A stretch of 56,713 bases of DNA from a virus: IMG/VR virus record IMGVR_UViG_3300037722_000354, positions 1-56,713 of that record; one strand, given 5' to 3'. The position numbers were made by a program, and so were the translations under genes. Under the pieces are notes generated by a model, which worked only from the letters and a program-made list of their open reading frames with translations, ran no database searches and was not told where the DNA came from. This document shows positions 1-43,651 of the stretch, piece after piece (positions within the stretch are counted from its first letter, which is position 1; the number at the start of each line of letters is the position of its first letter).

Positions 1-127
1 GGCTGAGGGTGTGGAAATACGCCCGGACGGTACGATTCTGGTTCGCTTGTCCCCGATCCCCACAGTGCCGGAGGCCGAGGATCAGGCTACAGCCGAGCGG
101 GAGGTCGTACTATGACCGAAATGCCCC
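1..127. repeat. 127-bp terminal direct repeat, copy 1 (identical to 56587-56713); circular-closure overlap
   Basis: Read directly: bases 1-127 equal bases 56587-56713. The repeat runs through the 3' end of ORF 56519-56701 and the integrase start codon. Unique genome length is 56,586 bp. Confidence 0.9.
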
Positions 128-9651: not shown

Positions 9652-11048
9652 CGCAGAGCCGCTAGCACCATCACCCTCGGGTTAGCCGCGTTCACATTGT
9701 CTCCCGTAACAGTCAGCCCGGTTTGTACCGAGGCAAATTCATCCGACGCGCCGCTGTGGTGCGAGTTACCCGTTCCTTCCACCGCCGCATCGAAATCTTC
9801 CGTAATGCCGGTCCATGTAAAGCCGGACGATCCACCCGGATAAGCCTGCACATATCCGAATAGTAGCCCGCCCGCTTCCACATCAATCGTTGTCGATGGC
9901 GGGTCTGCCGTCGAGTCCCCCGTATCGGTTGCCGTTGTACTCAACAATCCATAGGCTGAATACCAGCCTATTCCGCAGCGAAGTTGCGCATTGCTGTACG
10001 TTACAACGATATCCCCTGTGGTTCCTGTAGGAACCTCCGCGATATAGAGCGCGCAGGAAACATCTGCCGTATCCGTCCCGTTCAATCCTTGCTGGAAGTG
10101 CAATCGCGTGGCGGTGACGCCCGCGACCGTGACTGACGTAAACGGGTCGGCGGTCGTGTCCGTGTCCGTGCCGCCCGTGCCGACGACAATACACCTATCA
10201 GCCGCCTCGTCTCCGAGCGCAACGCTTGAGAATGTATAGACCGTCGCGTTTGTGCCACTGACAGACGAACCGAGGAAGGTCCGTGTAGCAGCGGCCACGC
10301 CACTCTCAGTCCCCTCCGCTACCGCTACACCAATCCCAACAATCGTACCGGCCTGCAATGCGTTCTTGATTACATTCGACGCAAGCACACCAACGCCGAC
10401 AATCGTTCCGTCATCTGTGGCATTGATCCCGCCCGTCGCGGCAGGATTGCCAATACTATCCAGCGCCGCATTGACGGTTCGGACACTTGCTCCATCTCCA
10501 TGTGCAATCCCCTCGCCAACAATAATTGCATTGGCAACGCCGGTTTTGAACACGTCCGCGACGGTAATTCCAATGCCTTCAATCTGCCCGTCGTCGGTAA
10601 ACGTCTTCGATCCGTCCGGCGTAAAGATTCCAATTCCGGTTATATCGACTTCGCCTGAGCGCGTGCTGGTCCCTTCGGATTGAGGATCGCCAAGGCTATC
10701 TAGTTCCGCAACGCCCGTATGTGCACCTGTTGCGTCCGTCTCAAGCGAGCCTTCGCCAACGATAGACCCGACAATGATCGCCTCGATATTCCCAACGCCG
10801 GAAAGCGAAGCGGTCGCGGAAATATCTCCGGTTACGATTGCAGTCTTAAACCCACTACCGGAAAACAGACCAATGCCGGTAACCTGGAAATTAATAATTT
10901 CCACTTCCAGAAGATCAAGCCCGACATCATAACTCGACCAGACGCCAACAATGCCATAGCGCGCCATTGAGCCAGTGACGGTGTGAACCGCCATCTCGCC
11001 CTCAACGTCATGGACTGCCCCGCGCCCGGAGACGGAATACTGTGCCAT
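9648..11048 (-). CDS. Tail fibre protein (paralogue of 7668-8912 at the N-terminus)
   Basis: 466 aa. Repeated VHDVEG/VHTVTG/RYGIVG nonapeptides, recurring ELDSLG/ALDSIG plus I(V)G-x-G modules, Gly/Thr-rich. Sits in the gp17 position of a T7-type virion module. Confidence 0.65.
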   Translation of the reverse strand: MAQYSVSGRGAVHDVEGEMAVHTVTGSMARYGIVGVWSSYDVGLDLLEVEIINFQVTGIGLFSGSGFKTAIVTGDISATASLSGVGNIEAIIVGSIVGEGSLETDATGAHTGVAELDSLGDPQSEGTSTRSGEVDITGIGIFTPDGSKTFTDDGQIEGIGITVADVFKTGVANAIIVGEGIAHGDGASVRTVNAALDSIGNPAATGGINATDDGTIVGVGVLASNVIKNALQAGTIVGIGVAVAEGTESGVAAATRTFLGSSVSGTNATVYTFSSVALGDEAADRCIVVGTGGTDTDTTADPFTSVTVAGVTATRLHFQQGLNGTDTADVSCALYIAEVPTGTTGDIVVTYSNAQLRCGIGWYSAYGLLSTTATDTGDSTADPPSTTIDVEAGGLLFGYVQAYPGGSSGFTWTGITEDFDAAVEGTGNSHHSGASDEFASVQTGLTVTGDNVNAANPRVMVLAALR

Positions 11049-27434: not shown

Positions 27435-29006
27435 TTATCTCCTTCTTCTTTTTTTCGAGCTGGAATAACCTAAATTCGCGAATTGCTGCTTGGGATGCCG
27501 AAACGACGATGACGCCTTGTGCAGATGTCTGGTCAGAACCTCTTGTCCCTCACTGAGGCACATCACCATCGCATCACCCTTGCCGGGCGAGCGACCGATG
27601 CGCTTCCTGATTTCTTCCTTGCTCTCAATCTGAATGCCGCGTGTCGTCAGCTTCCAGTGAGGCGTGGCAAGGTCCGCCCTGATTTCCGCACCGGGTGGCA
27701 ATGCAATGACAGACCCGCCCTCTTGATCCGGGTCCAGTTCCTCGCGCATTCGCCACCAAGCTTCCGCGCGCTTGTTCACAAACGATAGCTTGCCGTCTTT
27801 GGTCTTTGAGATTGATGTTGCCGCGCCATTAAATGCGTGATGATCAATCTCGTTATCCTTCAATCGAAGCGTGACAGCCCCGCCATATCCCCCGCCAACA
27901 TCGACAATCACCGGGGCATTGTGCCTGCGGTATTGAACGATCTTACCCGCCGCCCTTGATCCGTCCGCCGTTTCGTCGCCCTTGGCTGTCTGTGGTTCGG
28001 CAAACCAGCCCTGATGTCGCCAGATTAATTCTTCCGCGTCGTTCCCACCCCCGGCAGGATCGAGCGCCATCGAAGTCATGTTGCACTTCAGGTAGCCGTC
28101 CGATCTCCACCGAGACTGTGCGGCCATAACCCACGCGGTAGGAATGACCTGAAACGGATTATCCCTCAGGCTCGCGTCGAACCGTCCGTCCTTGTAAGCC
28201 GCTCTTAGTTCGGGCGGCAGCGCCGCTAGGACCGAGCCGTAGTTCGTTTCGGCAAGATCGGGGTTGTCGGCAAGCTCTGCCGGTATGAACGTTCTCGACC
28301 GGGCCATGATCTGCTCGTCGTCGATTAAATGCGGACCCGGCCCGTCAACTTCGGTGTCTTCCCCCTTGATTGTCGTGAACCAGCGCAACTCGCCCGGCTT
28401 GGCCGGATTCGGATGATTGGGATCGACCCACGGTGCCCAGTATTTCAGGACCCACAAGCCTTCTGGCGTTGTCGGAGGGTTGCCAGCGGCAACAATTCGG
28501 CACCTTTGCCGTTTATCCGCTGCGCGATTCCAACCAGCAATGAAGCGGTATTGCGTCTCGGTGAAGTCGGAAACCTCGTCGAACGCGATCAGGTCGTGCG
28601 GCGAGCCCTTGAACTTCTGCTTGTCGTCTTCGTGCTGGCAGCCGTTGACATCGATAATCCTGCCATCTATCCGCCAGATGTTATCCTGCCCGTTCCACCC
28701 GTCGCGGCTTCCGAGGATTTCGACGAACCGTTCGACCAGCTTTGTGGCCTCTTTGTTTGTTCGCCTTAGAACCAGCGACTTTTGGTGCTCGGTCAAGGAC
28801 AGGCCCACGATCAGGTCCGTCTTTCCGCCCCCCGCCTGCCCGCCGTAGAACAGTTCGTCCGCCGTTGAGAAGTACGCTTCCGTTTGCGGGCCGGGGTTCG
28901 GCTTCCACTTGTACCGGGCGTTCGCCTTCACCGCCGCCTGGATTGCCGCTTCCTTCTCCTTCACCGGCAGGGCGTTCAACGCCTGTAGAACTTCCTCTAG
29001 CTGCAT
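27435..29006 (-). CDS. terL: Terminase large subunit
   Basis: 523 aa. Walker A FYGGQAGGGKTD and Walker B DLIAFDEVSD, followed by a nuclease-domain-sized C-terminal half. Confidence 0.9.
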   Translation of the reverse strand: MQLEEVLQALNALPVKEKEAAIQAAVKANARYKWKPNPGPQTEAYFSTADELFYGGQAGGGKTDLIVGLSLTEHQKSLVLRRTNKEATKLVERFVEILGSRDGWNGQDNIWRIDGRIIDVNGCQHEDDKQKFKGSPHDLIAFDEVSDFTETQYRFIAGWNRAADKRQRCRIVAAGNPPTTPEGLWVLKYWAPWVDPNHPNPAKPGELRWFTTIKGEDTEVDGPGPHLIDDEQIMARSRTFIPAELADNPDLAETNYGSVLAALPPELRAAYKDGRFDASLRDNPFQVIPTAWVMAAQSRWRSDGYLKCNMTSMALDPAGGGNDAEELIWRHQGWFAEPQTAKGDETADGSRAAGKIVQYRRHNAPVIVDVGGGYGGAVTLRLKDNEIDHHAFNGAATSISKTKDGKLSFVNKRAEAWWRMREELDPDQEGGSVIALPPGAEIRADLATPHWKLTTRGIQIESKEEIRKRIGRSPGKGDAMVMCLSEGQEVLTRHLHKASSSFRHPKQQFANLGYSSSKKRRRR

Positions 29007-29739
29007 TCTGCTCCTGCATTCTTCCCAAGACGCCTACCGCATAAGGATGCTGGACATAGGTGTTGGCGTGATACGTGTTGTCGTCGAACGCACCCTTGAT
29101 GAACATATATTCGTCGCGGTTCGCAGCCTGCCTCGATTCGCATTCCTTCAGCCGCTGGAATAGTTCCACCTTGCGCACGTCGAGCTTGATCCTGTGCGGG
29201 TTATGTTCCGAATACCCGTACATCTGTTGCGGATAGAACAGGTCTGACTCGGGCGGAATGTCGATGAATATGCCGCGCTTCATCGCTTCCCATATGAAAA
29301 ACTGACAGGCGGGCTTTTGTCGTTCGTATTCTTCTGTTGCCGCCATATCGACGCCGCGCCAGCCAAGGACGCCTAAATCTTCTTCCTCAAGGGCAAGTGC
29401 TGCCATGTAGCTGAGCGAGCTTTGCCAGAAGAACGGCCCGTACTTGTCGAGCATCTTTTCAATCGGATAGCGCCGGGAGTTTGGAATCTCCGGGTGCGGC
29501 TCGATCATCCAGACCGGCCCTTTGAACTCGGTCAGGAATTTCCAGTACGGATCGGACTTCTTGAACCACGGGAAGTCTTCCGTGACCCGATGCAGTTCAA
29601 ACCAGACATCAACGCGCTTACCGGCTATTGCGGTAGCGCATCCGGGAGAGCAACCCCAAAGCAACCAGCTTGGGTCATTGTGCGGGGCCAAGCGTATCGA
29701 CGATGGGGCGCTCCCCAGAAGGCAAATGCGTTTCGACAT
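28681..29739 (-). CDS. Candidate Maf/GT42-like (nonulosonate) transferase; the 3' 325 nt overlap terL out of frame
   Basis: N-terminal RICLLGSAPSS...VDVWFELH and central SLSYMAALALEEEDLGVLGWRGVDM echo the GNGPSL and G-x-D motifs of CstII/DUF115 enzymes. The tail after about aa 245 is Arg/Gly/Pro-rich low complexity. Confidence 0.35.
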   Translation of the reverse strand: MSKRICLLGSAPSSIRLAPHNDPSWLLWGCSPGCATAIAGKRVDVWFELHRVTEDFPWFKKSDPYWKFLTEFKGPVWMIEPHPEIPNSRRYPIEKMLDKYGPFFWQSSLSYMAALALEEEDLGVLGWRGVDMAATEEYERQKPACQFFIWEAMKRGIFIDIPPESDLFYPQQMYGYSEHNPHRIKLDVRKVELFQRLKECESRQAANRDEYMFIKGAFDDNTYHANTYVQHPYAVGVLGRMQEQNAARGSSTGVERPAGEGEGSGNPGGGEGERPVQVEAEPRPANGSVLLNGGRTVLRRAGGGRKDGPDRGPVLDRAPKVAGSKANKQRGHKAGRTVRRNPRKPRRVERAG

Positions 29740-29748
29740 CGAGCCTCG

Positions 29749-30186
29749 TTACGATGAGATGACTGCGGCGGACGAGCCGTGATGATTGATAACGAGCCAG
29801 ATCGTGCTGATGTCCTGCAATTCCACACCGGCGCCCGCCGCCGTGAACAGGATGTTGAACATCGACGAGCCAGCCGTGCTCGTGATTGAGCCATTGCCGG
29901 ACGAGATAGTTACGGTCTGTTGGGTTGATGCGCTGTTTGCGACAATGCGAACTCTGCGGCCCGAACCGCTCGGCGTTGGAAGCGTGTAGGTCGCTGCGCT
30001 CGCTGCCGCGATCAGGTTGAGGCCGTAGTCTTTCAACGTGTCGGTCGTGGTCGTGAAAGTCGTATTCTCGCTCCAGCCCGCGATGTTCGTATCGAGCAGA
30101 GCATCGTTGACGGGATCGTGAACCTTGATTGCGCCGGTTGCCGGGTCGTACCCAAACATACGGCCATAGATGGAATGGTAAGCCAT
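29749..30186 (-). CDS. Ser/Thr-rich small protein (virion/decoration candidate)
   Basis: 145 aa with TTFTTTTDT and SASTQQTVTISSGNGSITSTAGSS tracts. The C-terminus IWLVINHHGSSAAVISS resembles that of ORF 22972-23244. Confidence 0.5.
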   Translation of the reverse strand: MAYHSIYGRMFGYDPATGAIKVHDPVNDALLDTNIAGWSENTTFTTTTDTLKDYGLNLIAAASAATYTLPTPSGSGRRVRIVANSASTQQTVTISSGNGSITSTAGSSMFNILFTAAGAGVELQDISTIWLVINHHGSSAAVISS

Positions 30187-30260
30187 TGTTGTTGTTCCCT
30201 GTTTTTGCTTATTGAGTCGTGCTTATTGATGGGCCGGGATGGCCATGCGCGTTTGTCTTA

Positions 30261-30283
30261 CAAAACCGCCCGCGCGGTGCGGC
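30261..30283 (-). terminator. GC-rich hairpin plus T-run directly after the stop of gene 30284-30670
   Basis: Minus strand reads TAA-GCCGCACCGCGCGGGCGG-TTTTG. Confidence 0.4.
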
Positions 30284-30670
30284 TTATAGGAATGTATGGA
30301 TCGGGGCGAGGAACGCCGTAAGCGACGTGGCCGTGGTCTGCGCCACCGCTCCGGTCGAACCGTCCGAAACCGGCTGAATGTACTGAAAGCCCGCGAATAT
30401 ATCCGGGCTGATGTAATGAACTTGGCTTGACGTGGCGGTGACAATGAATTGCGAGTTTGTCGAATTCATCAGGGTGTACATTGCCGATGTGGAATTGCCG
30501 ACCTTGAACGAGAGATACGCGGAATCCCAAACGGACGAGAGTGCAATCCCCGTAAGGGTCAGGCCCTTGGTGTCGAGCACGTCGCCAAGCCCGTCAGCCG
30601 CCGTGGATATTGCAAGCGATACGGACTGCTTCAGGCTTGGAACCTGTTGAGTCGGATAGACAATAGCCAT
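30284..30670 (-). CDS. Small Ser/Thr-rich protein with a strong RBS (abundant structural-protein candidate)
   Basis: 128 aa. RBS ccaaggagaaaaaataATG. Followed by a terminator-like hairpin. Confidence 0.55.
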   Translation of the reverse strand: MAIVYPTQQVPSLKQSVSLAISTAADGLGDVLDTKGLTLTGIALSSVWDSAYLSFKVGNSTSAMYTLMNSTNSQFIVTATSSQVHYISPDIFAGFQYIQPVSDGSTGAVAQTTATSLTAFLAPIHTFL

Positions 30671-30767
30671 TATTTTTTCTCCTTGGGGCCGTCAGTCTTC
30701 ACGACAAACGACCCATGCCCTGCGGCTCCTTTGGAACCGCTCACGACGAATTTCACCACTCGCGCAG

Positions 30768-31913
30768 TTAATTGTGATTCCAGATTGCATCTTTGGTCCA
30801 TTGCCCGTCACCGTTCTTTGCCCACACGCGCGGGTCGCGGAATTGATCCGCTGTTTGTTCAAACTTGGTTCTCGTCATGCCGACATAATCCAGCCAGCGA
30901 ACCAGATCGCTCGGGACTACATGATCGTATTGGCGGATTAACTCGATGCCTTCCGCCCGCGTCATTTCACCGGCACGAATATCCCGGCAAACATGATCGG
31001 TGCAGCGCCCGTAACCGAACTTGATGTATTTCAAATAGTCATGCACGCCATCGTGCATATTGTTCAGGTTGCAGTCCCGCTTGTAGGTACGGTCCATGGG
31101 AGCCGGATTCTGCTCGAATCCGTATTGCTCCTGCATCAATCTCGATTGACGGTTCTGATTCCAGACGAAGTAATTGGAAATGAACACGCCGCGCAGTTCG
31201 ATCCGCTCGATCTCCGCATCGCTCGGGTACTTCGCCCATTGCAAATCCCGTTCGGTCAGCCCTTCCTCGCCAAGGAAGTCAGTCCATTCATAGCCGTGCT
31301 GTAGATGCTCCTTGCGGAAGCGGGACGTGTATTCAACCATGTCCCGGTAGGAGTGCATTCCCCCAAGGTCCATGAAACCATGCTCGCCCCAGATAACGAG
31401 CTGTATCTGGTATTTGACCGCGATCTGCGTCGGGAAGCAGTTAATTCCCATGTGAGCGTGCATGTCGGTATCGCCCATCTTGCGAAGGCCAACACGGTTC
31501 AGCTTTTTCAATACCTCAATTGAGGGCGTGAAATTGATGTAGTCGCAATTGAAACAGTCTTTCATGCGCTGGATATTGCGCTTGCCGACTTCCGTCTCGT
31601 TGTTCTCGTTGTAGCAGACTAGGAGCGGGTTCATGCCGTATTGCTTGACGGTGTGAATCTGCCAGTAGCTGTCCTTGCCGCCCGAAACCGGGATTAAACA
31701 GTCGTAGCCGACCGGCCTGCGGTATTCGTCGCACAGTTCCGCGAACTGCTTCTCGCGTGCAGTCCAGTCTATTCCCTGTTTTTCCTCTGCCGTCCTGCAC
31801 CCGGAACAGACTTGCTCATTGTCGAAATGAACCGGCGCGGCGGCGATCATCGGGTAGCAGCAACGCTGGCAGTACGATTGCCTAGGCGGCGATGTCGTAG
31901 TCGAACCGGACAT
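30768..31913 (-). CDS. N-acetyl-sugar amidotransferase (PseA/WbuX-type PP-loop enzyme)
   Basis: 381 aa. N-terminal Cys pairs CQRCC...CSGC and the PP-loop LIPVSGGKDS, as in the acetamidino-forming LPS/flagellin-glycan amidotransferases. Confidence 0.7.
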   Translation of the reverse strand: MSGSTTTSPPRQSYCQRCCYPMIAAAPVHFDNEQVCSGCRTAEEKQGIDWTAREKQFAELCDEYRRPVGYDCLIPVSGGKDSYWQIHTVKQYGMNPLLVCYNENNETEVGKRNIQRMKDCFNCDYINFTPSIEVLKKLNRVGLRKMGDTDMHAHMGINCFPTQIAVKYQIQLVIWGEHGFMDLGGMHSYRDMVEYTSRFRKEHLQHGYEWTDFLGEEGLTERDLQWAKYPSDAEIERIELRGVFISNYFVWNQNRQSRLMQEQYGFEQNPAPMDRTYKRDCNLNNMHDGVHDYLKYIKFGYGRCTDHVCRDIRAGEMTRAEGIELIRQYDHVVPSDLVRWLDYVGMTRTKFEQTADQFRDPRVWAKNGDGQWTKDAIWNHN

Positions 31914-32583
31914 TAAAACCTTGCCGTCTTAGGTATTGCTTCGCCCGTTTGTACGAGGACTCCACGAAGTGGAAGATGTTACCTGCGGCCACTGCGTGGG
32001 CTCCGGATATGAGGGCGTCTCGGAAATGTGAATAGTCCCCGCAGCCTCCCGCTGCCACCACGGGGATCGTGATTCCGCCCGCAACTCGCTCAATTGCTGC
32101 ACAATCAAAGCCAATTGCCGTTCCATCGCGCTCAATCGCGTGGAGAAAGATTTCTCCCGCGCCCTTGGCTTCCGCTTCTTGCGCTGTTTCTGCATTTCCA
32201 TCATCCACCGAAACCACAACCGCCTGTGAGCCGAACTTGTCCGCTATGCTCTCGATCAGGCCGGGTATCTTCGCACCCCTGCCGATCAATACCTTGTCCG
32301 CACCGTTCCTGATTAATCTTGCCGCATCGTCGAGCGACCGCACATTCCCGCCAACGGTGAGCGGCATGAAAGCCCTGTCTGCAATTGCACGGAGCAATTC
32401 ATCCCCGATGCCGGGGCCGTCCCTCGTTATGTCAATGTAGCAAACCTCGTCTGCCTGCCATTCGTCGTAACGGGCCAACTCGTCGAACGGATTGCCTATG
32501 ACCTTGAACTCACTGCACCGCTCGCTTCTGACGATCCGCCCGTTCATTAGAAAGATGACGGGGATAATTCGCGTCGTCAGCAT
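31882..32583 (-). CDS. HisF-like (imidazole glycerol phosphate synthase cyclase-type, WbuZ-like) protein
   Basis: 233 aa from the ATG at 32583. RIIPVIFLMNGRIV...LTVGGNVRS...PVVAAGGCG is the (beta/alpha)8 HisF pattern. Overlaps both neighbours. Confidence 0.7.
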   Translation of the reverse strand: MLTTRIIPVIFLMNGRIVRSERCSEFKVIGNPFDELARYDEWQADEVCYIDITRDGPGIGDELLRAIADRAFMPLTVGGNVRSLDDAARLIRNGADKVLIGRGAKIPGLIESIADKFGSQAVVVSVDDGNAETAQEAEAKGAGEIFLHAIERDGTAIGFDCAAIERVAGGITIPVVAAGGCGDYSHFRDALISGAHAVAAGNIFHFVESSYKRAKQYLRRQGFNVRFDYDIAA

Positions 32584-33203
32584 TTCTCCACCACAATCAA
32601 CGCCGCCGGGTTCTCCGGGTTCGCATCCAAGCCCCACAATTCGCACTTGGGCTCATATCCCAATTCCAGAATTGCAGCGGGCAACCCCCGCACATAGCCA
32701 AACATATCCATCCTTGCCCGCGCGCTTTCGTGCGCCAGTTCATAGGACGGCTCGACCATCACAAGTGCCTTGCGGGTCACTCGTAATAGCTCCCTCAATA
32801 TCTCCATCTCACGTCCGCCGTTCGGTTCAATCGCGTGATAGGTCGTAACCACGTCGAACGACTCGCTACCCAACGGGATTGCATCCAATGGCGACTGGAT
32901 GAACATTCCAGTCAGGCCGTTGTCCCGCATGTGCTTACGTGCGATGTCGAGCCTCGGAAGCGATATATCAAAACCTAGAACTCGTCTTGGCTTGACCTTC
33001 ATTGCCAGCAGAAGCGGCACAAGCGTTGTCGCCTCGCCCGTTCCTGCGTCCAATAGATTAACCGGCTCATATCGCTCAATGACGCTGGCGAGCTTCTTGC
33101 CTATTTCGGCCTTTTGATCGGCGTAAGTCTGGTTGGCTAATGCTGCGATGTAGGTTCCGGCTTGCAGGTCGTAGGACTGTTCAATCTCGGCGGTGGTTCT
33201 CAA
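32577..33203 (-). CDS. Class I SAM-dependent methyltransferase
   Basis: 208 aa. LLDAGTGEATT (motif I-like) and FDVVTTYHAIEP. The TTG start overlaps the stop of the upstream micro-ORF. Confidence 0.6.
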   Translation of the reverse strand: MRTTAEIEQSYDLQAGTYIAALANQTYADQKAEIGKKLASVIERYEPVNLLDAGTGEATTLVPLLLAMKVKPRRVLGFDISLPRLDIARKHMRDNGLTGMFIQSPLDAIPLGSESFDVVTTYHAIEPNGGREMEILRELLRVTRKALVMVEPSYELAHESARARMDMFGYVRGLPAAILELGYEPKCELWGLDANPENPAALIVVEKC

Positions 33204-33307
33204 GACGTTGCCCGCACCACAACAAAGATTAACGAAGCGATTGAAATGCCGAGGGCGAAAAAAGCGAGCGCAAGCGCCACCATGACGGCCCCGTATGCGT
33301 CGCTCAC
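33200..33307 (-). CDS. Micro-ORF encoding a single-TM peptide (35 aa)
   Basis: A GTG start forms GTGA with the PhyH stop, and its TGA overlaps the TTG start of the methyltransferase. Peptide (M)SDAYGAVMVALALAFFALGISIASLIFVVVRATS. Confidence 0.35.
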   Translation of the reverse strand: MSDAYGAVMVALALAFFALGISIASLIFVVVRATS

Positions 33308-34080
33308 GGCTTCACCACCAGATTAGCCCGCCCGCAATCCCGCCCGACATAAGGCGTCACATCAAACTCCCCGCTCAATGTCAAATCATCCTCCGGCGTC
33401 CACACCCGCGTAACGCACGCGAAGCTATAACCATCCGACGTGTTCGGGTTGGAACGATGAATCAAATTCCTGTCGAAGACAATCAAATCCCCGCGCTTGC
33501 TCTCGCAAACATGCTCAGGGAATTCAGCCACGAAATTCTCAGGCACCTCGAATTGACGGAAAGCGTTCTGTCCCTCTTGATATTCCGCAAACGGCCAGTC
33601 CCGCTTATGGCTCCCGAGCTTCACGCTCATCACCCCGTTGTCCTTGGTCTTGTCGGCAAATACCGGAAACCAGATGTTCAGGAAGCGGCGGCGCTTGGGA
33701 TAGTAATGCGCCTCGCTATGCCATTTATAAAGCAGCCGTGTTGTGTTCGGGCGGTTGATAAGCAAGCCCGGCCCGCTGATTAAGAGATTCCTCGTACTGC
33801 ATTGCAAGAGGCCAGCGCACGTCTCGCGGAATTGCTCACCGAATAACTCCCCAACCCAAGGCGAGAGTGGCAGCATCTTCTGCACCTGATAGAGTGCTTC
33901 CTTGTCCTTGGCTTCCATCGCCTCGCAGATCGCCGGTAGATCGTCCGGCAAATCGCTGTAGTCAGCTATCTTGTGGGCCTGGAGCGAATAAAGCCTTGTG
34001 ATCGATTGCTCGAATTCAGTCAGATCATCCAGATCGAAGAAGCGCTTGATATGGGTAAAGCCCCTGTCGGCAAAACTCAC
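33304..34080 (-). CDS. Phytanoyl-CoA dioxygenase (PhyH)-family Fe(II)/2-oxoglutarate oxygenase
   Basis: 258 aa. WHSEAHYY (H-x-D/E facial-triad context) and a distal NLIHRS His. Size and pattern fit PhyH. Confidence 0.55.
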   Translation of the reverse strand: MSFADRGFTHIKRFFDLDDLTEFEQSITRLYSLQAHKIADYSDLPDDLPAICEAMEAKDKEALYQVQKMLPLSPWVGELFGEQFRETCAGLLQCSTRNLLISGPGLLINRPNTTRLLYKWHSEAHYYPKRRRFLNIWFPVFADKTKDNGVMSVKLGSHKRDWPFAEYQEGQNAFRQFEVPENFVAEFPEHVCESKRGDLIVFDRNLIHRSNPNTSDGYSFACVTRVWTPEDDLTLSGEFDVTPYVGRDCGRANLVVKP

Positions 34081-34709
34081 GTCTTGCCTTTCTCAAATAA
34101 CCAATAATGTAAATTATCCAACCCCGTCTCTCGCTTCCAAATAAATCCATAACTCAAGCATTTCAAATCGGGAAAGCTATCCATCCAGAACGAACCGAAG
34201 TCCCGCTTGAACAGCTTGTCCTCGTTATACCGATAAGGAATGCTCACCGGCGTATCGTTGAAATATTCAATGCAGGCGACCCACCGGGAGGCACACCGAT
34301 GGATCGACCTGCACGAGTCAGCCAATTCATGGGGAGGGACATGAATCAGGACGCCGGAAGTGAAAGCCAGTTCGGCTACATTGTCGGGAAACCCGATATT
34401 CTGTGCCGTCCCGTCGATGACCTGTTCGCACAGCCCGGTTAGTTCAAGGTCTGTCCTTGCCTGTTCGTTCGGTTCGACCGCGTAGAACTTGGGCCTTCCA
34501 TCCAACAGGTAATTGAGCGATTTGATATTGAGGCCGGTATTGGACCCGACTTCCAGAATACTCCCCGGCACCTTGCCAAGCGCAAGCATTATGCGAGCCC
34601 ACAAGAGATTATAGGCTGGCAGGTAGTCCTCATCGTTCCTGATCGAATATGAGTTTCCGAAACTCCCGCGCCAGAATTCCTCTTGCGGTGTAATGCCGTT
34701 TGCCTTCAC
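34077..34709 (-). CDS. Pseudaminic-acid-biosynthesis-associated methylase family protein
   Basis: The GTG at 34709 makes a GTGA overlap (the ORF extends to 34742). QEEFWRGSFGNSYSIRN...ILEVGSNTGLNIKSL matches the family pattern FW.g.FG..Y..RN ... iLE.G.N.G.NL. Confidence 0.65.
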   Translation of the reverse strand: MKANGITPQEEFWRGSFGNSYSIRNDEDYLPAYNLLWARIMLALGKVPGSILEVGSNTGLNIKSLNYLLDGRPKFYAVEPNEQARTDLELTGLCEQVIDGTAQNIGFPDNVAELAFTSGVLIHVPPHELADSCRSIHRCASRWVACIEYFNDTPVSIPYRYNEDKLFKRDFGSFWMDSFPDLKCLSYGFIWKRETGLDNLHYWLFEKGKT

Positions 34710-34960
34710 AGTTTGCGCGCCTTCAGTTCGCCGCCTTCCCATGTGACCGCGTGGGTTTCACCAACCCAACCGCGCGGGAGTATGGCATCATGAAGCGCAA
34801 TCTCAAGCTGGCGAACGCGGTTTTCCCAATGACCCCGCTCATAGTTCAATCGCTGTATGGCGTGTGTAACCATCGGCCTAGTCACTGCTTCGCCACGGCC
34901 AGCCCAATCGTGAAGTTCCTGTAAATGGTCGTCCAGCTCATACTTGAAAACCTCAGGCAT
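34706..34960 (-). CDS. Hypothetical small protein within the sugar cluster
   Basis: 84 aa from the ATG at 34960 (8-nt overlap with the PseI-like stop). No motif recognised. Confidence 0.45.
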   Translation of the reverse strand: MPEVFKYELDDHLQELHDWAGRGEAVTRPMVTHAIQRLNYERGHWENRVRQLEIALHDAILPRGWVGETHAVTWEGGELKARKL

Positions 34961-35699
34961 GAATTGCCTCGACCATCTGCCTGAATTCGTCCGGCTCCAA
35001 TGAGAACGCAGCGTCAGGCCCGCCATTCGAGCGAGATAGCGTTATGTGCTTCTCAATGATCTGGGCGTTGTAGTTCTTGACCGCGCTGACCGCCGCTTCA
35101 ATACCGGGCGTATGATCGGAGAAGCCTATGCGCCTCGACGGCAAGGCCCTATGCAACTCCCTTATTCTGTGAAGCATCGCTTCCTCAATCTTGCACGGGT
35201 AGCGTGAGACACAATGCAAGTATGAAATATCGTTATCCGGTAGCTCTGGTATATCCTTGCCGGGTAGTGAAATTACGATTGGCTTGCCGGTATCTGCCGC
35301 CGACATAATCAGCCGCCCGTCGCCCGCCTCCATCGCACTGATCTTGTACGCAGGGCACCCGAGCGTTTCGAGAAACTCAATATCCTTCACATCGAATACC
35401 GACGAGAAGACCTGAATTCCAATATCCCGCCCGTATTCAAATAGCTTGGGAAACCATTCCCTTGGCGTGTGCGTCTCGCGGTACAGGTCCAGCAGATTGC
35501 GCCCGTCCCACAATCCGCCCGACAGCACCTTATCCTTGCCGCCCCTGCGTTCGGCCAATCGTTCTGGATCGAAACATTGCAGCTTGGCAGCGTCAGCGCC
35601 CGCATCCTTCGCGGCCCGGATCAATGTCAATGCGTTCGTGAACTGCCCGCGATGCTCGCCGCTTAGCTCGGCAATGATAAACGGCTTAGCGAAGCGCAT
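34953..35699 (-). CDS. pseI: Pseudaminic acid synthase-like (NeuB-family nonulosonate synthase) without a SAF domain
   Basis: 248 aa. FIIAELSGEH...AAKLQ...AYKISA...GFSDHT... is the NeuB TIM-barrel pattern. It ends before the usual C-terminal SAF/antifreeze-like domain. Confidence 0.7.
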   Translation of the reverse strand: MRFAKPFIIAELSGEHRGQFTNALTLIRAAKDAGADAAKLQCFDPERLAERRGGKDKVLSGGLWDGRNLLDLYRETHTPREWFPKLFEYGRDIGIQVFSSVFDVKDIEFLETLGCPAYKISAMEAGDGRLIMSAADTGKPIVISLPGKDIPELPDNDISYLHCVSRYPCKIEEAMLHRIRELHRALPSRRIGFSDHTPGIEAAVSAVKNYNAQIIEKHITLSRSNGGPDAAFSLEPDEFRQMVEAIHA

Positions 35700-36093
35700 A
35701 GGTTTCCTGAATCAGCTTGAAGCCCTGATCCTTGAAGAACTCGATGCTCCGGGAATTCCTGGGCGAGACGTTCGCCAGCATCTTGCCCGGCCAGTATTTG
35801 CGCAATTGGGCCAATGCCTCTGCCCCATAGCCCTTGCCCGCGTGCTTCTGGAACAGGAACAGCCCGACCTCTCTCTGCTTGCTCAGATAGATAGAGCCTA
35901 CAATCTCATCATCGTTGTGGATCAGATACCAAGCTTTGTACGGGACGGAATTCACGAACTCGACGTGCTGCTCATAGCTCGGCATGGAGCAATGGCTGAT
36001 GCTTTGGTCCGCCGTGCGTTCGGCCAATAGCTCGTAGAGAATGCGGCAGGTCTGTTCGGTAGGACCGCATTTGTAGATGTTGCGCAGATTCAT
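35686..36093 (-). CDS. pseH: GNAT N-acetyltransferase (PseH-like)
   Basis: 135 aa. ...IVGSIYL...KHAGKGYGAEAL...SIEFFKDQGFKL contains the GNAT Q/R-x-x-G-x-G/A acetyl-CoA motif (HAGKGYG). Sits between the PseF-like and PseI-like genes. Confidence 0.6.
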   Translation of the reverse strand: MNLRNIYKCGPTEQTCRILYELLAERTADQSISHCSMPSYEQHVEFVNSVPYKAWYLIHNDDEIVGSIYLSKQREVGLFLFQKHAGKGYGAEALAQLRKYWPGKMLANVSPRNSRSIEFFKDQGFKLIQETYALR

Positions 36094-36725
36094 GCGGCTT
36101 GGCGGGCCTGCATGAATTCCGCCAATCGCTTAATATCCTCTGCATAGTCAATGGTATATCGGTCGTCGGTCATTTTGCGCAGCGACGACAATTCAGCTGT
36201 CTCGCAGTTGCTCTGCATCCAAGAAGTGACGTGCTCCCGATCATATGGGTCAGTAGCTTCCGTGTTTGCCTGCGCAAGCGCACGCATAGTAAAGGCCTCA
36301 CAATCATAGCCGCGTGGCCACGTCCGCCTCGGATACACGTTGCTCGCGTAGTCCACGCACAACGCAAAACGAAGGGCTATTACGCGGTCACATAGAAAAG
36401 GCTCAATCAATGGGCAGTCGCCAGTAATGCGAACAATAACATCGACGTCACTAAGCCCAAAAGACTCCGCCGCATTATAGAACCGCGTCAGAACGTCATT
36501 CTCATCGCACTGGTCATACCAAGCGCGGAAGTCGCATTCGTCAATGACAGGCTGTAGTGCGTCTGCGTCAGCATATGGTGCCGCTACGCAATAATGGTCC
36601 GCTTTAATCTGTTTCGCCCTCGTCAGCACATGCCATAGCACTGGATGGCCGCATAGCTCAGCCATGACCTTTCCGGGGAAACGCTTGGAGCCAAGTCTTG
36701 CTTGAACTATGACGGCGGTCCTCAT
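36090..36725 (-). CDS. pseF: Cytidylyltransferase (PseF/SpsF-type CMP-nonulosonate synthetase)
   Basis: 211 aa. N-terminal AVIVQARLGSKRFPGKV is the signature of acylneuraminate/SpsF-type cytidylyltransferases. Confidence 0.7.
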   Translation of the reverse strand: MRTAVIVQARLGSKRFPGKVMAELCGHPVLWHVLTRAKQIKADHYCVAAPYADADALQPVIDECDFRAWYDQCDENDVLTRFYNAAESFGLSDVDVIVRITGDCPLIEPFLCDRVIALRFALCVDYASNVYPRRTWPRGYDCEAFTMRALAQANTEATDPYDREHVTSWMQSNCETAELSSLRKMTDDRYTIDYAEDIKRLAEFMQARQAA

Positions 36726-37306
36726 CGGAACAACTCCACCTGACTAAGATCAGGATAGTCACTGTTCGGCAGCGGCTCGTTGTTCTTGGGCAGGATTGCC
36801 AGTCTCGTTAAACCTTCCGCAGCATCCCTCGGCATCATGTACGCATGATAGCCAAGCACGTCGAACGTGGACTCGCCTCGCTCACTGCGTCCGTCAAATC
36901 TAGCCTTGCGTAGCCATTCGTCGGCTTTGGGATCGTCGTGCAGGATCGCCCCGCCCTGTCCAACCGACAGATGTTTGCTCCAGTGAAACGACAGGCACAT
37001 CATCCCACCAAGGTACATGCCGCTCGTTAGCAACCGCGCATAGTCAAAGATCGGATATGGATAGAGCTGATAGCCGCCAACCCATTCGTGGTCCCGAAAC
37101 TTAACCTTCCCGCCCACGTTTAATATGCTCATAGGCACGCCGACATAAGTCCGCTTCGGTATTTCTACCTCGTCAACCTTATGCCATTTGCACGCCAACA
37201 ATAATGCCATCGTGCAGGACGTAGTGGCAACCGCGTAAGGAGCACCGGTATATTCGCACAGCGCCCGCTCGAACATGCGGACCACTTCAAATGGATCGCA
37301 GGACAT
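36722..37306 (-). CDS. pseC: Truncated-size DegT/DnrJ/EryC1-type PLP aminotransferase (PseC-like)
   Basis: 194 aa. AVATTSCTMALLLA...EVEIP and SFHWSKHLSVGQGGAI (PLP-lysine context SF..K....GeGG). About half the normal length of the family. Confidence 0.55.
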   Translation of the reverse strand: MSCDPFEVVRMFERALCEYTGAPYAVATTSCTMALLLACKWHKVDEVEIPKRTYVGVPMSILNVGGKVKFRDHEWVGGYQLYPYPIFDYARLLTSGMYLGGMMCLSFHWSKHLSVGQGGAILHDDPKADEWLRKARFDGRSERGESTFDVLGYHAYMMPRDAAEGLTRLAILPKNNEPLPNSDYPDLSQVELFR

Positions 37307-37418
37307 ATATCAGTTTAATCACTACGACCAATAACAAGACTCCGGCGATTGACCAGCAATAGATCAAATAGGATCGCCACGCGGGATCAGCCCAAATCTC
37401 TTTGATTTCGCGAATCAT
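37287..37418 (-). CDS. Micro-ORF encoding a single-TM peptide (43 aa)
   Basis: The ATG forms ATGA with the PseB-like stop, and the ORF overlaps the PseC-like start by 20 nt. Peptide MIREIKEIWADPAWRSYLIYCWSIAGVLLLVVVIKLIYVLRSI. Confidence 0.4.
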   Translation of the reverse strand: MIREIKEIWADPAWRSYLIYCWSIAGVLLLVVVIKLIYVLRSI

Positions 37419-38254
37419 ATCGTCTCCAATGCGCGGGTTAATTCAGGAACCGCCATCCTACGGGCGGCATCACTCGAATTGCCATCGCACATTGCTTCGT
37501 GCTGTTTCTCATATTTGGGCAGGCCAATAACGTTAATCTGCTTCCCCATCGCCTCTGCAAGATCGGCCAGTCGGTAAGCAGGCAGCGTCGGGATATTCAA
37601 CTCCCCGCCCTTCATTGTCTCAATCGTCTTGATTACCAGATCAATCGCTTCGTCCATCAGCATCCAGAACCTGGTACAGTCAGGATCGGTCACGGGGACC
37701 ACGCCGTTCATCCCGCGCCATCTTGGAATTACCGAGCCCTGCGAGCCAGCGACGTTTCCATATCTCGTGACAGCGAATATCGGCCCGTCCTCGCCCCGCG
37801 TATTGTTGGCGTTCAGGAACAGGCTTTCAGCCAATGCCTTGGTCTGGCCGTAAGGACTCACCGGCTGATATGCCTTGTCGGTGCTTAGTGCGACGACCTT
37901 CTGAACCCCGGCATCCTGGGCGGCTTCAATGACGTTCATGGCTCCGTGAACGTTCGTCTTCACCATTTCTCCGGGATTGTACTGCCCGACCTCGATACGC
38001 TTTAGTGCGGCGGCGTGTACGACCAGATCGACTCCACTAAAAGCACGCCTAAGCCTATCCCTATCGCGCACGCACCCGAGTAAATAACGAACTCGACTAT
38101 CATTGATATCATCGGCCATCTCGGCTTGCTTGTGTTCGTCCCTCGATAGAACAGCTACACGCCTTGGCTTGTGGTCGCGCAATAATCTCTTGACGAATGC
38201 CCTGCCGAAACTGCCCGTGCCACCTGTAATCAGGACCGATTGGCCGTCGATCAA
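37415..38254 (-). CDS. pseB: UDP-GlcNAc 4,6-dehydratase (PseB/FlaA1/CapD-type short-chain dehydratase)
   Basis: 279 aa. VLITGGTGSFG...VHAAALK...STDKA...YGQTK...RYGNVAGSQGSV follows the PseB sequence pattern closely. The TTG start overlaps the terS-like stop (cATTGA). Confidence 0.8.
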   Translation of the reverse strand: MIDGQSVLITGGTGSFGRAFVKRLLRDHKPRRVAVLSRDEHKQAEMADDINDSRVRYLLGCVRDRDRLRRAFSGVDLVVHAAALKRIEVGQYNPGEMVKTNVHGAMNVIEAAQDAGVQKVVALSTDKAYQPVSPYGQTKALAESLFLNANNTRGEDGPIFAVTRYGNVAGSQGSVIPRWRGMNGVVPVTDPDCTRFWMLMDEAIDLVIKTIETMKGGELNIPTLPAYRLADLAEAMGKQINVIGLPKYEKQHEAMCDGNSSDAARRMAVPELTRALETI

Positions 38255-38589
38255 TGTGCAGTCTCTTGCTTCTGCTTAACGGCGCGGGCCAGAAGGAATG
38301 AAACTTCACGCGCGGCTTCGGTGTCGTTTACCGTGCGAATCTCAAGCGGATTGTCGGGGTCACCAGTCAGTTGCATTGCTTGCGCGGGCTTGCCGTCTAA
38401 GCGGTCTGCGATTTCCCGGATTGCCCAGCCTTCACCATTCCCAGCCAGTTCGAGAAGCTTCTTGGCTATTTCGCGCAGCGCTTTATGGTCTGCACCAACA
38501 GCAGCTATTTCCATCCGAAGCGCATCGGCAAACGGCTTCTCTATCTTCCGCCCATCTGGGTTTCCAGATTGGCCAGGCTTCCACGCCAT
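38251..38589 (-). CDS. terS: Terminase small subunit candidate (GQSGNP-motif family)
   Basis: 112 aa from the ATG at 38589, MAWKPGQSGNPDGRK... The N-terminal GQSGNP.GR motif is common in small terminases of alphaproteobacterial phages. First gene of the late array. Confidence 0.5.
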   Translation of the reverse strand: MAWKPGQSGNPDGRKIEKPFADALRMEIAAVGADHKALREIAKKLLELAGNGEGWAIREIADRLDGKPAQAMQLTGDPDNPLEIRTVNDTEAAREVSFLLARAVKQKQETAH

Positions 38590-38859
38590 TGCTAGCAATC
38601 CTAAATTATTGTGTTGTCTAAGCCCTATCGTCTCGATGATGGGGGATGGGGATTGTTGGAACACATTTGATTTCGGAACGAATCCTTCACGCACCCTTCC
38701 GGGGCGGGATAGACCAAATCATAGGCATATTACTTTGCCAACCTCTCAGCGCATATCGCCATGCCTGAGACGCGGGCTCTCAGACATTTAGTCCTTTGTA
38801 CTCAGTGCCTGGCTGCTATCAATTCTTCACCGCTCATTCCGAGCGGAGGAGAAACGAAA

Positions 38860-41918: not shown

Positions 41919-42057
41919 TGTCGCCCTCGATGTTTACCGCTAAGCATTTGTCCCGTTTGTTTCTTCGCAAGTGGCTGCACTGTGGGCAGATTGTTCGCTG
42001 CTCGCCGTTCCCAGCATGGGCCGGAATCCCAAGGGCGCGCAGTGCGGCGATCACCAC
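41767..42057 (-). CDS. Primase zinc-binding domain ORF, out of frame with the Toprim-helicase ORF
   Basis: CPQCSHLRRNKRDKCLAVNIEGDSAKFHCWHCDWKG is a C-x2-C...C-x-H-C primase zinc ribbon. GTGA coupling to the upstream gene. Its 3' 152 nt overlap 40419-41918 in another frame. Confidence 0.55.
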   Translation of the reverse strand: MVIAALRALGIPAHAGNGEQRTICPQCSHLRRNKRDKCLAVNIEGDSAKFHCWHCDWKGGTGGESHRGGAGVRSRTKAQPGDFGMSRRRIRYNVLS

Positions 42058-42701
42058 GCATCCCCCCTGGCCCGTAGATCGTCAGGCGAATCCCGGCCCC
42101 GCACTATTGCGCCGATGTATTCACGGGCATTTTGCTTGGTCGATGCCGTTTCGAGCGCGGCCCGCGCCAACGCGACGTTTTTATTTTTCGCCGCAAGAAG
42201 ATTTTTGATTAGACCGCCGGAATCATTGCCGAGAATTTGTTTTCCTCGGTTGAACAAGGCAACTTCGTCGGATTCTTCCGGTGACGCCGCGTGAGCGGCA
42301 TCTTTATTTTCTTGTAACTGTCTATGTGATTGTGAAGGTGTATGCGTTTGCAATGGCAAGACGGTAGCATTTGCTATAGGTTTGCCATAACGGGCTTCTG
42401 CCCCTGCTATGCCTGCGGCTTTGCGTTTGTTAGTTATTTGTTCTGCTCTCGCTAGTTCTTCGTCGATCCTTTTGTGCCCCCATCCATCAGAGAAAAATGC
42501 TGCGATTGTCGCACAAGATTTAGCCCATTCTTTCTGCGTCATGCGGGCGATGCGGGCCAGCCGAACATCATCAACCGGTAAACTGCCGTTCTGCCAATAG
42601 TGCATAATCAATAGGAGATACGCACCGTGTTCGGTGGCGCTTAAGTGCCCCGTATCAGCGATGTAGTCGGCAACATAGAGCGGCATCCAAGGTCTATTCA
42701 T
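42051..42701 (-). CDS. DUF1376 (YdaU-like) replication-associated protein
   Basis: 216 aa. WMPLYVADYIADTGHLSATEHGAYLLLIMHYW is the DUF1376 signature. Confidence 0.8.
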   Translation of the reverse strand: MNRPWMPLYVADYIADTGHLSATEHGAYLLLIMHYWQNGSLPVDDVRLARIARMTQKEWAKSCATIAAFFSDGWGHKRIDEELARAEQITNKRKAAGIAGAEARYGKPIANATVLPLQTHTPSQSHRQLQENKDAAHAASPEESDEVALFNRGKQILGNDSGGLIKNLLAAKNKNVALARAALETASTKQNAREYIGAIVRGRDSPDDLRARGDAW

Positions 42702-43147: not shown

Positions 43148-43651
43148 TCATGCAAACCGCCCGATGATAACGGACGTTTTGGGCCGGTTGCCGGTGCGGA
43201 CGATGCGCGTAAAGCACCGCTCATGATGGTCTGGACAGTAAGGTTTGCCGTCCAGAAGATCGGCTTCAGGAAGTCCGCAATAGCCTTCATTGACCGGAAA
43301 CCGGCATGTTTCATTGGTCAGATCGAAAAGCGAAACCCGCGCTATGTCGCTTTCTCTCGGTAGAAGAATTGGCGTGCCGGGAACGGAGACATTGCTGCGC
43401 GTGTATTTTCGTTTGGGCTTGTCGGACTTTTCCGCAATCTTTCTGGCCGCGCCGCCATCTGCACCCTTCGCACGGCCTACATGCCTTAACCGGCCCCTGT
43501 GCCATAGGCTGATGATTGCATTGCGGGTAATTGGGCGGCGAAACTCTCTTGCTGCTTCGGCTGCAATGGCACTGGCCGCCATTCCTTCGTCCGTCATGGA
43601 TTGAAGAAAATTCAATTCGGTCGGCGTGTATGGAAGAACAAAATTGCTCAT
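43148..43651 (-). CDS. gcrA: GcrA-family cell-cycle regulator homologue
   Basis: 167 aa. N-terminal HTH-like ...SAIAAEAAREFRRPITRNAIISLWHRGRL and C-terminal LFDLTNETCRFPV...YCGL...GKPYCPDHHERCF match both GcrA domains. Confidence 0.75.
   Translation of the reverse strand: MSNFVLPYTPTELNFLQSMTDEGMAASAIAAEAAREFRRPITRNAIISLWHRGRLRHVGRAKGADGGAARKIAEKSDKPKRKYTRSNVSVPGTPILLPRESDIARVSLFDLTNETCRFPVNEGYCGLPEADLLDGKPYCPDHHERCFTRIVRTGNRPKTSVIIGRFA

Follow-up and report, generated by a model that had tools for sequence, protein, structure and literature searches.

The virus record IMGVR_UViG_3300037722_000354, analysed over its whole stretch of 56,713 nucleotides (nt) and referred to below as the window, carries on its minus strand an open reading frame (ORF, 28681..29739) which probably, at a rough probability of 0.55, encodes a minimal phage enzyme of sialyltransferase fold that transfers a pseudaminic-acid-type sugar, activated by cytidine monophosphate (CMP), onto a phage protein. 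The ORF listing gives a product of 352 amino acids (aa) beginning MSKRICLLGSAPSS…. An earlier account made from the letters of the DNA alone (the sequence-only reading) had taken this start, the motif VDVWFELH and SSLSYMAALALEEEDLGVLGWRGVDM as echoes of CstII-type sialyltransferases of family GT42 and of DUF115/Maf nonulosonate transferases, and all three elements are indeed present in the translation.

In the proposed mechanism, the neighbouring genes would supply a CMP-activated pseudaminic-acid derivative as donor. The enzyme would consist of a core of ~180 residues of the nucleotide-sugar-binding type (modified GT-A; GT42/GT29/DUF115-like) followed by a helical hairpin, and would bind the donor through a G-x-x-P-S loop, the start of the helix at S107/S108, and D131. 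The sugar would then be transferred to Ser/Thr residues of the product of the adjacent gene orf145, the best candidate acceptor, or of another virion or phage protein, with the hairpin perhaps serving oligomerisation or acceptor binding.

Predicted fold of the core

A full-length AlphaFold2 model built on a 95-sequence alignment reached a predicted local distance difference test score (pLDDT) of 95 and displays a Rossmann-like α/β core (residues 1-179; 29203..29739, minus strand), assigned as catalytic in type from the core model and the invariant columns, and then a long helical hairpin (residues ~181-249; 28993..29199, minus strand), whose helices at 181-228 and 232-249 are modelled with pLDDT above 90. 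For the hairpin, which forms the conserved C-terminal end of the family, the only sequence hints are weak coiled-coil-type matches to YbgF and TolA_bind_tri. Remodelled alone, the core gave a pLDDT of 95.1 and a predicted template modelling score (pTM) of 0.90.

Foldseek comparison of this core model with the PDB returned five best neighbours that are all CMP-sialic-acid transferases. Three are CstII structures of GT42, namely 1ro8 (E 4e-3, probability 1.00, query-based template modelling (TM) score, TMq, 0.55), 1ro7 (E 6.7e-3, probability 0.99, TMq 0.52) and 2x63 (E 4.7e-2, probability 0.98, TMq 0.57), and two are human ST8SiaIII of GT29, 5bo8 and 5bo7 (E 3.9e-2 to 4.7e-2, probability 0.93-0.95, TMq 0.51-0.52); the next unrelated fold follows at a TM score of ~0.33. 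SteA (9hmy, TMq 0.50) and thiamine pyrophosphokinase (3l8m, TMq 0.42) are also found among the PDB fold neighbours. Among predicted viral structures, the members of the family itself are followed by matches that include a phage 'MptE-like' and a mimivirus 'DUF115 domain' protein with TMq 0.52-0.55. The structural comparison proposed with the sequence-only reading has thus uncovered the similarity it was meant to look for, with CstII and ST8SiaIII as the top five PDB neighbours at TM scores of 0.51-0.57, and the models point to a core with a sialyltransferase-type fold bearing part of the nucleotide-sugar motif set of that fold.

Relation to GT42, Maf/DUF115 and GT29 enzymes

For a comparison at the sequence level, GT42 homologues were collected with a CstII query sequence, which matched the PDB at E 3e-194, and 35 sequences were aligned. 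The profile aligner hhalign placed the family segment 'fTSSlawMxAlAIe…IGlwGVDMAAtEE-Y' on CstII residues 130-164, 'ITSGVYMCAVAIALGYKEIYLSGIDFYQNGSSYAF', as the only segment aligned, so that SS..M.A.A…G-V-D…Y falls onto T131-S132…G152-I-D154…Y162 of CstII. Inspection of the invariant residues further sets G9-S-A-P-S13 and C30 beside G8-N-G-P-S12 and C30 of CstII. Of the CMP-binding motifs of CstII (the G-N-G-P-S loop, the T-S-G helix start, the G-I-D-F-Y strand and Tyr162), a part has putative counterparts in G9-S-A-P-S13, S107-S108, G129-V-D131 and Y138, which are invariant or nearly so, with Tyr156 replaced by Ala. The echoes of CstII pointed out in the sequence-only reading are accordingly more than chance, as hhalign aligns SSL…GVDM…Y to CstII 130-164 and Foldseek ranks CstII first.

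CstII and GT42 (PF06002; 1RO7, 1RO8, 2X63) provide the best structural neighbour of the core, with TMq 0.52-0.57, and the order of motifs is shared as well, running from the G-x-x-P-S loop after strand 1 through Cys30 at the end of strand 2 and the S/T-S…M.A.A helix to G-(V/I)-D, with a Tyr following at a distance of 7-8 residues. The donor of GT42 enzymes is a CMP-activated nine-carbon sugar, and the window ORF adjoins a CMP-nonulosonate pathway. The phage proteins differ in that no PF06002 match was obtained among 105 members at E<=10, nor for the window protein at E<=0.1; the phage core is ~70 residues shorter, no counterpart of the lid region was found in it, and a helical hairpin stands where CstII has a membrane-association segment at its C-terminus. 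CstII acts on the glycans of lipooligosaccharides, not on proteins. Its catalytic base is His188, situated after the lid region and invariant in the GT42 alignment, whereas the end of the phage core at ~179 carries P-P-E-S-D and Y-G-x-S-E without a conserved His, and the invariant His of the family is H50 in strand 3.

The nearest sequence signal is the sub-threshold one to PF01973 (MptE-like, that is Maf_flag10/DUF115), the Pfam family matched by most members at a permissive threshold, with four of the 105 members matching and a best E of 0.049. The window protein itself gave no PF01973 match, the curated threshold not being reached, and hhalign against one phage MptE-like protein gave no match; jackhmmer found two MptE-like sequences only, too few for a profile. 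Maf proteins are much larger and multi-domain, while the phage protein comprises ~250 aa in one α/β core and a hairpin. According to one published study, the Maf_flag10/DUF115 domain is related to Cst-II through its modified GT-A topology, Maf depends critically on acidic residues and a Ser, and Maf enzymes can use CMP-activated 3-deoxy-D-manno-oct-2-ulosonic acid (CMP-Kdo) (10.1101/2020.06.03.131540). Maf (PDB 5MU5) and the phage enzyme further resemble each other in the DUF115/MptE-like viral fold neighbours and, as far as the clade of the window is concerned, in an association with pseudaminic or legionaminic acid genes. Maf glycosylates Ser/Thr of a nearby-encoded partner, and Maf-2 needs the cis-encoded GlfM, to which the pairing of the phage enzyme with orf145 offers a parallel. 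Maf-1 carries a C-terminal TPR domain. The phage enzyme is encoded in virion modules rather than flagellar loci, no flagellin is involved, and it has neither several domains, one of them for binding flagellin, nor the setting of a flagellin glycosylation island.

GT29 (ST8SiaIII, 5BO6-5BO8) shares with the core the modified GT-A nucleotide-sugar fold and uses a CMP-sugar donor. Sequence identity is only 11-12%, however, no GT29 sialylmotifs were seen in the phage protein, and GT29 enzymes are eukaryotic Golgi proteins with disulfides and a much larger domain. By its sequence the phage protein would thus represent a separate family rather than a member of GT42 or PF01973. Of the resemblance to GT42 and DUF115 put forward in the sequence-only reading, the similarity of fold is borne out and is accompanied by the sub-threshold PF01973 signal; the analysis found neither membership of PF06002 or PF01973 by sequence nor a His188 counterpart.

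A new family restricted to phages

Residues 1 to ~230 are conserved in 97 proteins by single-sequence search and in 1096 clusters (at 90% identity) by profile search, and no Pfam domain was found in any of them; the usual length of the family proteins is 250-290 aa. In alignments of 95-105 homologues, the invariant or near-invariant positions are G9, A11-P12-S13-S14, P19, C30-S31-P32, W46-F47-E48 and H50, followed by S107, M112, A114, A116, G129, D131, M132, E137, Y138 and Q141, and towards the C-terminus of the core by P162, E164, S165, Y174, G175 and E178. These make up the core motifs G9-S-A-P-S13, C30-S-P, W-F-E48-L-H50, S107-S…M112…A116, G129-V-D131-M and E137-Y138…Q141. Among the polar residues, E48, H50, D131 and E137 are invariant across all clades and Y138 and Q141 nearly so. 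The distant clades keep the same invariant residues as the clade of the window, and the chemistry is therefore presumably the same.

Outside viruses, a search through 185,579 representative genomes of bacteria and archaea met the family in only four contigs, all from metagenome bins. The only homologue in cultured phages is a distant one in Microcystis phage Mvi-Yong1342-1, annotated 'type 11 methyltransferase'. The family is thus a new, unannotated and phage-restricted variant of the sialyltransferase/DUF115 fold class; no description of it, or of phage-directed nonulosonylation of phage proteins, was found in the literature.

The nonulosonate pathway upstream of the gene

Matches to Pfam and NCBIfam reveal a pseudaminic-acid-type nonulosonate pathway on the minus strand at 30768..38254. 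Upstream of the ORF, the genes follow in the order orf145, orf128, WbuX, WbuZ/HisF-like, two methyltransferases, a PhyH-type dioxygenase, PseI/NeuB, a GNAT protein, a CMP-sugar cytidylyltransferase, a short PseC-like protein and PseB. Judging from these annotations, the upstream genes constitute a CMP-pseudaminic-acid-type pathway with extra tailoring enzymes, in which WbuX and the WbuZ/HisF-like protein account for acetamidino formation. Another 20 proteins of the window were searched and yielded no further glycosyltransferase domain, leaving the ORF as the only candidate transferase for the pathway product.

The linkage was surveyed in the clade of the window, sampled as the best 80 IMG/VR loci together with metagenome contigs. 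Nonulosonate genes lie upstream in 30 of the 33 near-clade loci for which 8 kb or more of upstream sequence is available, and in 8/9 of those with 5-8 kb, amounting to 38 of 42. The more distant members (30-37% identity) are found either in head/neck modules of siphovirus type or, in ~75-kb phages, in the company of tail-fibre-like genes, and there the picture is different (see below); the sugar linkage thus characterises one clade and not the family at large. The gene neighbourhood behind the donor-plus-transferase system suggested by the sequence-only reading is accordingly seen in the close homologues, 38/42 of which stand beside a CMP-pseudaminic-acid-type pathway, and not in the distant loci, 0/80 of which have sugar genes within 10 kb.

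A DUF5681 protein (38251..38694, minus strand; PF18932, E 1.5e-7), which we take to be the small terminase subunit (terS), is encoded on the far side of the pathway. With this assignment, the sugar cluster, orf128, orf145 and the enzyme gene lie between terS and terL, the gene of the large terminase subunit; the minus-strand stretch concerned is 29008..38694, and the sugar cluster is included in full, at ~9 kb. The junction between terS and terL seems to be an insertion site for cargo. One relative without the sugar genes (L023) has a terS-like gene, an orf145-like gene, the enzyme homologue and terL in succession, only the orf145-like and enzyme genes being present as cargo between the two terminase genes.

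Several pathway proteins are short. The PseI/NeuB homologue (34953..35699, 248 aa) matches only positions 1-251 of the 327-position PseI model, and its C-terminal SAF domain is therefore taken as missing; the PseC-like protein (36722..37306) has 194 aa against a model of ~380 positions. The versions of relatives are also short, as in L004 with its DegT-type protein of 206 aa. Neither PseG nor a HisH/WbuY partner was identified for the window pathway, which, on this sequence evidence, may be split, abbreviated or host-dependent. No similarity was detected between orf128 and a Gp10-like protein of L004.

The conserved partner orf145

Directly upstream of the enzyme gene lies orf145 (29749..30186, minus strand), encoding a Ser/Thr-rich protein of ~145 aa. 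It occupies the same position beside the homologues of L001-L004, L006, L019 and L023 and accompanies the enzyme throughout the clade of the window, including the loci without sugar genes. Applied to siphovirus-type loci (445 ORFs), a hidden Markov model (HMM) of orf145 picked out exactly the gene upstream of the enzyme in L096 (E 2e-9) and L095 (E 6e-7), and it was also positive in 13 of the 14 loci closest to these two. The remaining distant loci were negative, and no orf145 homologue was found in cultured phages. Since the two genes are paired in different phage types, the pair behaves as a mobile two-gene cassette. By analogy with Maf and flagellin, or with Maf-2 and its specificity factor GlfM, orf145 could be the acceptor of the enzyme or a specificity subunit or other partner of it.

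Some distant members present features of their own. In the phages with ~75-kb contigs (L118 9818..10696, L120 9827..10909, L145 9836..10693), a conserved stretch, …TPNFAD…H(V/I)xxxHEP…GE…, is added at the N-terminus of the enzyme, whose gene stands among those of tail-fibre-like proteins and is flanked by one gene of ~128 aa and another, Ser/Thr-rich, of ~180 aa; no partner was detected with the orf145 HMM in phages of this type. The siphovirus-type contig L095 has a separate true PF01973 (MptE-like/DUF115) gene at 9153..9950, 1.2 kb downstream of its distant family member, so that a single virion module encodes two enzymes of the fold class; L109 has a close copy.

Alternative functions

Several results weigh against a transferase of pseudaminic-acid-type sugars. 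No match to the ORF was obtained in Pfam (E<=0.1), PHROGs or NCBIfam, or among PDB sequences searched with a profile, and the hhalign result with the 35-sequence GT42 alignment has a probability of 8.8% and an E of 0.0038 over 34 columns only. No counterpart of the catalytic His188 or of Tyr156 of CstII was identified, the alignment stopping at Y138/Y162. Foldseek with the whole 250-residue model produced no significant match in the PDB (best TM 0.27-0.38), because the long hairpin dominates the comparison, a problem solved by the core-only model; even there the E-values are modest, with a best of 4e-3, and solved Maf structures are not among the 50 PDB matches listed. Four near-clade loci, L008 (a Microcystis phage), L019, L023 and L093, have no nonulosonate genes, and none of the 80 sampled distant-clade loci has them within 10 kb, so that the linkage could partly reflect gene order inherited in one lineage. 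What is known of the proposed function comes entirely from sequence, predicted structure and gene context, from which we infer donor, acceptor and chemistry.

The distant loci, in which the invariant residues are unchanged, bear on the possibility that the same fold serves another chemistry, either in a DUF115/thiamine-pyrophosphokinase-like enzyme such as a pyrophosphokinase or in a transferase with a host donor like CMP-Kdo, the pseudaminic neighbours being inherited gene order. Thiamine pyrophosphokinase 3l8m (TMq 0.42) and SteA 9hmy (TMq 0.50) are among the fold neighbours, the nearest Pfam signal is 'MptE-like', and CMP-Kdo is usable by Maf enzymes (10.1101/2020.06.03.131540). If the family does transfer a nonulosonate-type sugar, the donor in distant phages without nearby genes must come from elsewhere in the genome or from the host, for which CMP-Kdo would be one possibility by analogy. 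Such another chemistry is nevertheless considered unlikely, as sialyltransferases score better than the kinase-type folds by E-value as well as by TM-score, the CMP-sugar pathway in the clade of the window would be an orphan but for this gene, its sole candidate transferase, and the gene is found in virion modules beside Ser/Thr-rich proteins across phage types and not among metabolic genes. The place of the gene also invites its interpretation as a non-catalytic accessory of packaging or assembly, with a Rossmann-like fold and a role in the terminase or head assembly: it abuts terL in ~80 related podovirus-type loci, the frequent 1- or 4-nt overlap suggests translational coupling, and L093, a prophage-like locus in a bacterial assembly, keeps the enzyme gene and terL in the absence of the sugar genes. 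This role is improbable, because separate genes of the small-terminase type exist (DUF5681 in the window and a terS-like ORF, read from sequence, in L023), the gene is away from terL in siphovirus-type phages, and the polar residues E48, H50, D131 and E137, with Y138 and Q141, are kept in all clades in a manner typical of an active site. That the ORF is itself the small terminase was rejected, as a separate terS-type gene is present.

The transfer of a CMP-activated pseudaminic-acid-type sugar therefore remains the favoured function. A broader proposal, which is possible rather than probable, is that the enzyme and orf145 form a portable cassette by which tailed phages of different morphotypes decorate a protein of their own, probably on the virion surface, with a sialic-acid-like sugar; some lineages, including that of the window, would make a heavily modified pseudaminic acid, and others would draw on a CMP-sugar of the host. 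If so, the cassette would represent a new minimal family of protein nonulosonate transferases and a phage-directed 'sialylation' of phage proteins, of which no case was found in the literature.

The known transferases for pseudaminic or legionaminic acids are few, and recognising them by sequence is difficult. With more than 1000 clusters at 90% identity, no Pfam, PHROGs or NCBIfam annotation and a sialyltransferase-like core of ~180 residues, the family would be a compact candidate for glyco-engineering, and its function, if true, would account for the presence of entire nonulosonate pathways in phages. Its conserved association with a small Ser/Thr-rich protein provides a directly testable trio of donor, enzyme and acceptor, and virion proteins as targets would have a bearing on phage surface chemistry, host recognition and immune visibility.

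Overlap with terL and the absent stop codon

The downstream gene terL (27435..29006, minus strand) encodes a large terminase of 523 aa (phrog_979, terminase large subunit, E 8e-30) with the Walker A motif GGQAGGGKTD at TerL residues 55-64. The protein has full-length homology to the TerL of relatives, and its start at 29006 is backed by distant relatives, whose TerL align from residue 3 with 43-44% identity. Ribosome-binding sites were read from the sequence for both genes: AGGAG (29011..29015, minus strand) lies 4 nt 5' of the terL ATG and within the ORF, and GAGG (29744..29747, minus strand) precedes the ORF in the 9-nt gap after the orf145 stop. With its stop codon included, the ORF overlaps terL by 326 nt, where the sequence-only reading gave 325 nt, and codon position 3 of terL coincides with codon position 1 of the ORF.

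Inside terL, the tail of the ORF is composed of two parts separated by a single codon. Codons 245-276, NAARGSSTGVERPAGEGEGSGNPGGGEGERPV (28912..29006, minus strand), are common to the ~91%-identical relatives, which stop right after; codon 277 (28909..28911, minus strand) is CAA in the window and a TAA stop in relatives, as located by pairwise DNA alignment and codon coordinates; and codons 278-352 with the stop (28681..28908, minus strand) form a read-through extension, Arg/Gly-rich with an isoelectric point (pI) of ~12, which lies out of frame over the Walker A region of terL. The GC contents at codon positions 1/2/3 are 0.56/0.40/0.69 in ORF codons 1-244, the normal coding pattern of this genome, and 0.79/0.63/0.39 in codons 245-352, where terL in its own frame has 0.64/0.40/0.80. 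The composition of the tail is that of terL read one base out of register, which bears out its description as out-of-frame low complexity in the sequence-only reading.

Two relatives demonstrate where the protein ends. The homologue on the 53-kb IMG/VR contig L009 is 91% identical and has 276 aa with the C-terminus …GEGERPV, and P0001, an independent metagenomic protein of 92% identity, terminates at the same residue, likewise with 276 aa; comparison with homologues, recommended earlier as a check, has thus located the end of both at a TAA. The window DNA at 28912-29037 (alignment columns 44-169) is identical to that of L009, and the next base differs, giving GTA-CAA in the window and GTA-TAA in the relatives. 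This C at 28911 occupies the third position of the terL codon for Tyr32 (TAC in the window, TAT in L009), and the change from TAA to CAA is for this reason silent in terL. The absence of the stop at codon 277 accounts for the 326-nt overlap, as the frame stays open for 76 codons more to a chance stop at 28681. Among the options left by the sequence-only reading, namely a genuinely long overlap, a lost stop codon or an indel near 29,000-29,040, the lost stop is the correct one. An indel or frameshift in that interval was rejected, the DNA being identical to L009 there.

The relatives behave like ordinary phage late-operon genes, from which the window departs. Across 82 related loci that share this terL family, the end of the gene mostly falls within -10 to +8 nt of where terL starts, most often with an overlap of 1 nt or 4 nt; only six of the 82 overlap terL by at least 20 nt, with a maximum of 98 nt in L009, and the read-through extension is absent from the nearest relatives and from all 82 loci. 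At ~2% of positions in the genes of the window, this relative frame stays open for 108 codons or more, which is uncommon yet not extraordinary. A test of the overlapping tail frame for a coding signature and conservation found a non-coding GC pattern and relatives without the extension. In 174 members, the median length is 282 aa, 16 have at least 340 aa, and 20 (~11%; for example P0011, P0081, P0087 and P0090) end in strongly basic Lys/Arg-rich tails after a low-complexity linker. The close relatives of the window have acidic or neutral C-termini. Given how much the family C-termini differ by nature in length and charge, the enzyme probably tolerates an additional disordered tail. The accidental tail of the window also happens to be basic. 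The long-tailed member P0006 is followed by a small terS-like ORF belonging to another kind of terminase module, for which reason a tail crossing the TerL Walker A region was rejected in this case.

That the stop is absent and the read-through tail non-functional is thus very probable. Ribosomes would read on, out of frame, through the first 108 codons of terL to the chance stop at 28681, and terL would be translated from its own AGGAG site and start codon; we infer initiation at this site rather than by termination-reinitiation. Whether the stop was lost in the window or gained in the sister lineage, residues beyond 276 are dispensable, and the last 76 to 108 residues of the ORF are not part of the enzyme. 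It is very unlikely that the long overlap is functional, with an Arg/Gly-rich tail selected for DNA or procapsid binding or the overlap used for a programmed frameshift fusing the enzyme to TerL. The basic tails of 20/174 members, the pI of ~12 and the rarity of so long an open run (~2% of positions) would fit such a role, but the tail has exactly the composition of terL out of frame, a single base makes the two nearest relatives stop 76 codons earlier, the terL overlap never exceeds 98 nt in related loci, and the tails of close relatives are acidic or neutral. A programmed-frameshift fusion was rejected, with no supporting feature, neither a slippery site nor a fused homologue being seen. Equally small is the chance that base 28911 was miscalled in sequencing or assembly and the real protein has 276 aa. 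CAA and TAA do differ by one base, but neither an indel nor a disturbance of frame is present, TAC is an ordinary Tyr codon, and many other silent terL differences from L009 lie nearby, so that a real polymorphism is just as likely. The overlap is ordinary and of no biological importance; it illustrates how, in a GC-rich genome, a change silent in one gene can remove the stop of its neighbour and generate a long apparent overlap.

Terminase mosaicism and phage type

Comparison of window 28860..28905 with L009 10835..10880 revealed that TerL residues 36-47 are wholly different between nearly identical flanks, reading NPGPQTEAYFST in the window, which fits the consensus of distant relatives, and KWEEQIDGFLCN in L009, in proteins otherwise ~89% identical. 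The sequences indicate a short mosaic patch just before Walker A. The closest relatives by enzyme identity (66-84%), L001 (1444..3268), L002 (6731..8333) and L003 (7342..7954), possess another terminase module, with a small terS-like ORF and a Terminase_6N-type terL, the switch point being situated just after the shared start M(Q/R)LEEVL. The two barely similar terL types share their extreme C-terminus, …ANLGYSSSKKRRRR in the window (27435..27500) and …ANVGYAGSKTRRRR in L001 (3200..3268), which may reflect docking on a conserved portal.

The integrase (112..1182), the DUF1376 protein (42051..42701) and the GcrA-like regulator (43148..43651) of the window are read as pointing to a temperate phage of an alphaproteobacterium. 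The phage is far removed from cultured ones, its portal sharing no more than 28% identity with the portals of Pelagibacter podophages. A TylF-type O-methyltransferase (8968..9651, E 5e-7) is encoded on the plus strand amid a run of long minus-strand genes, and Microcystis phage Mvi-Yong1342-1 also has a gene annotated 'sugar O-methyltransferase'.

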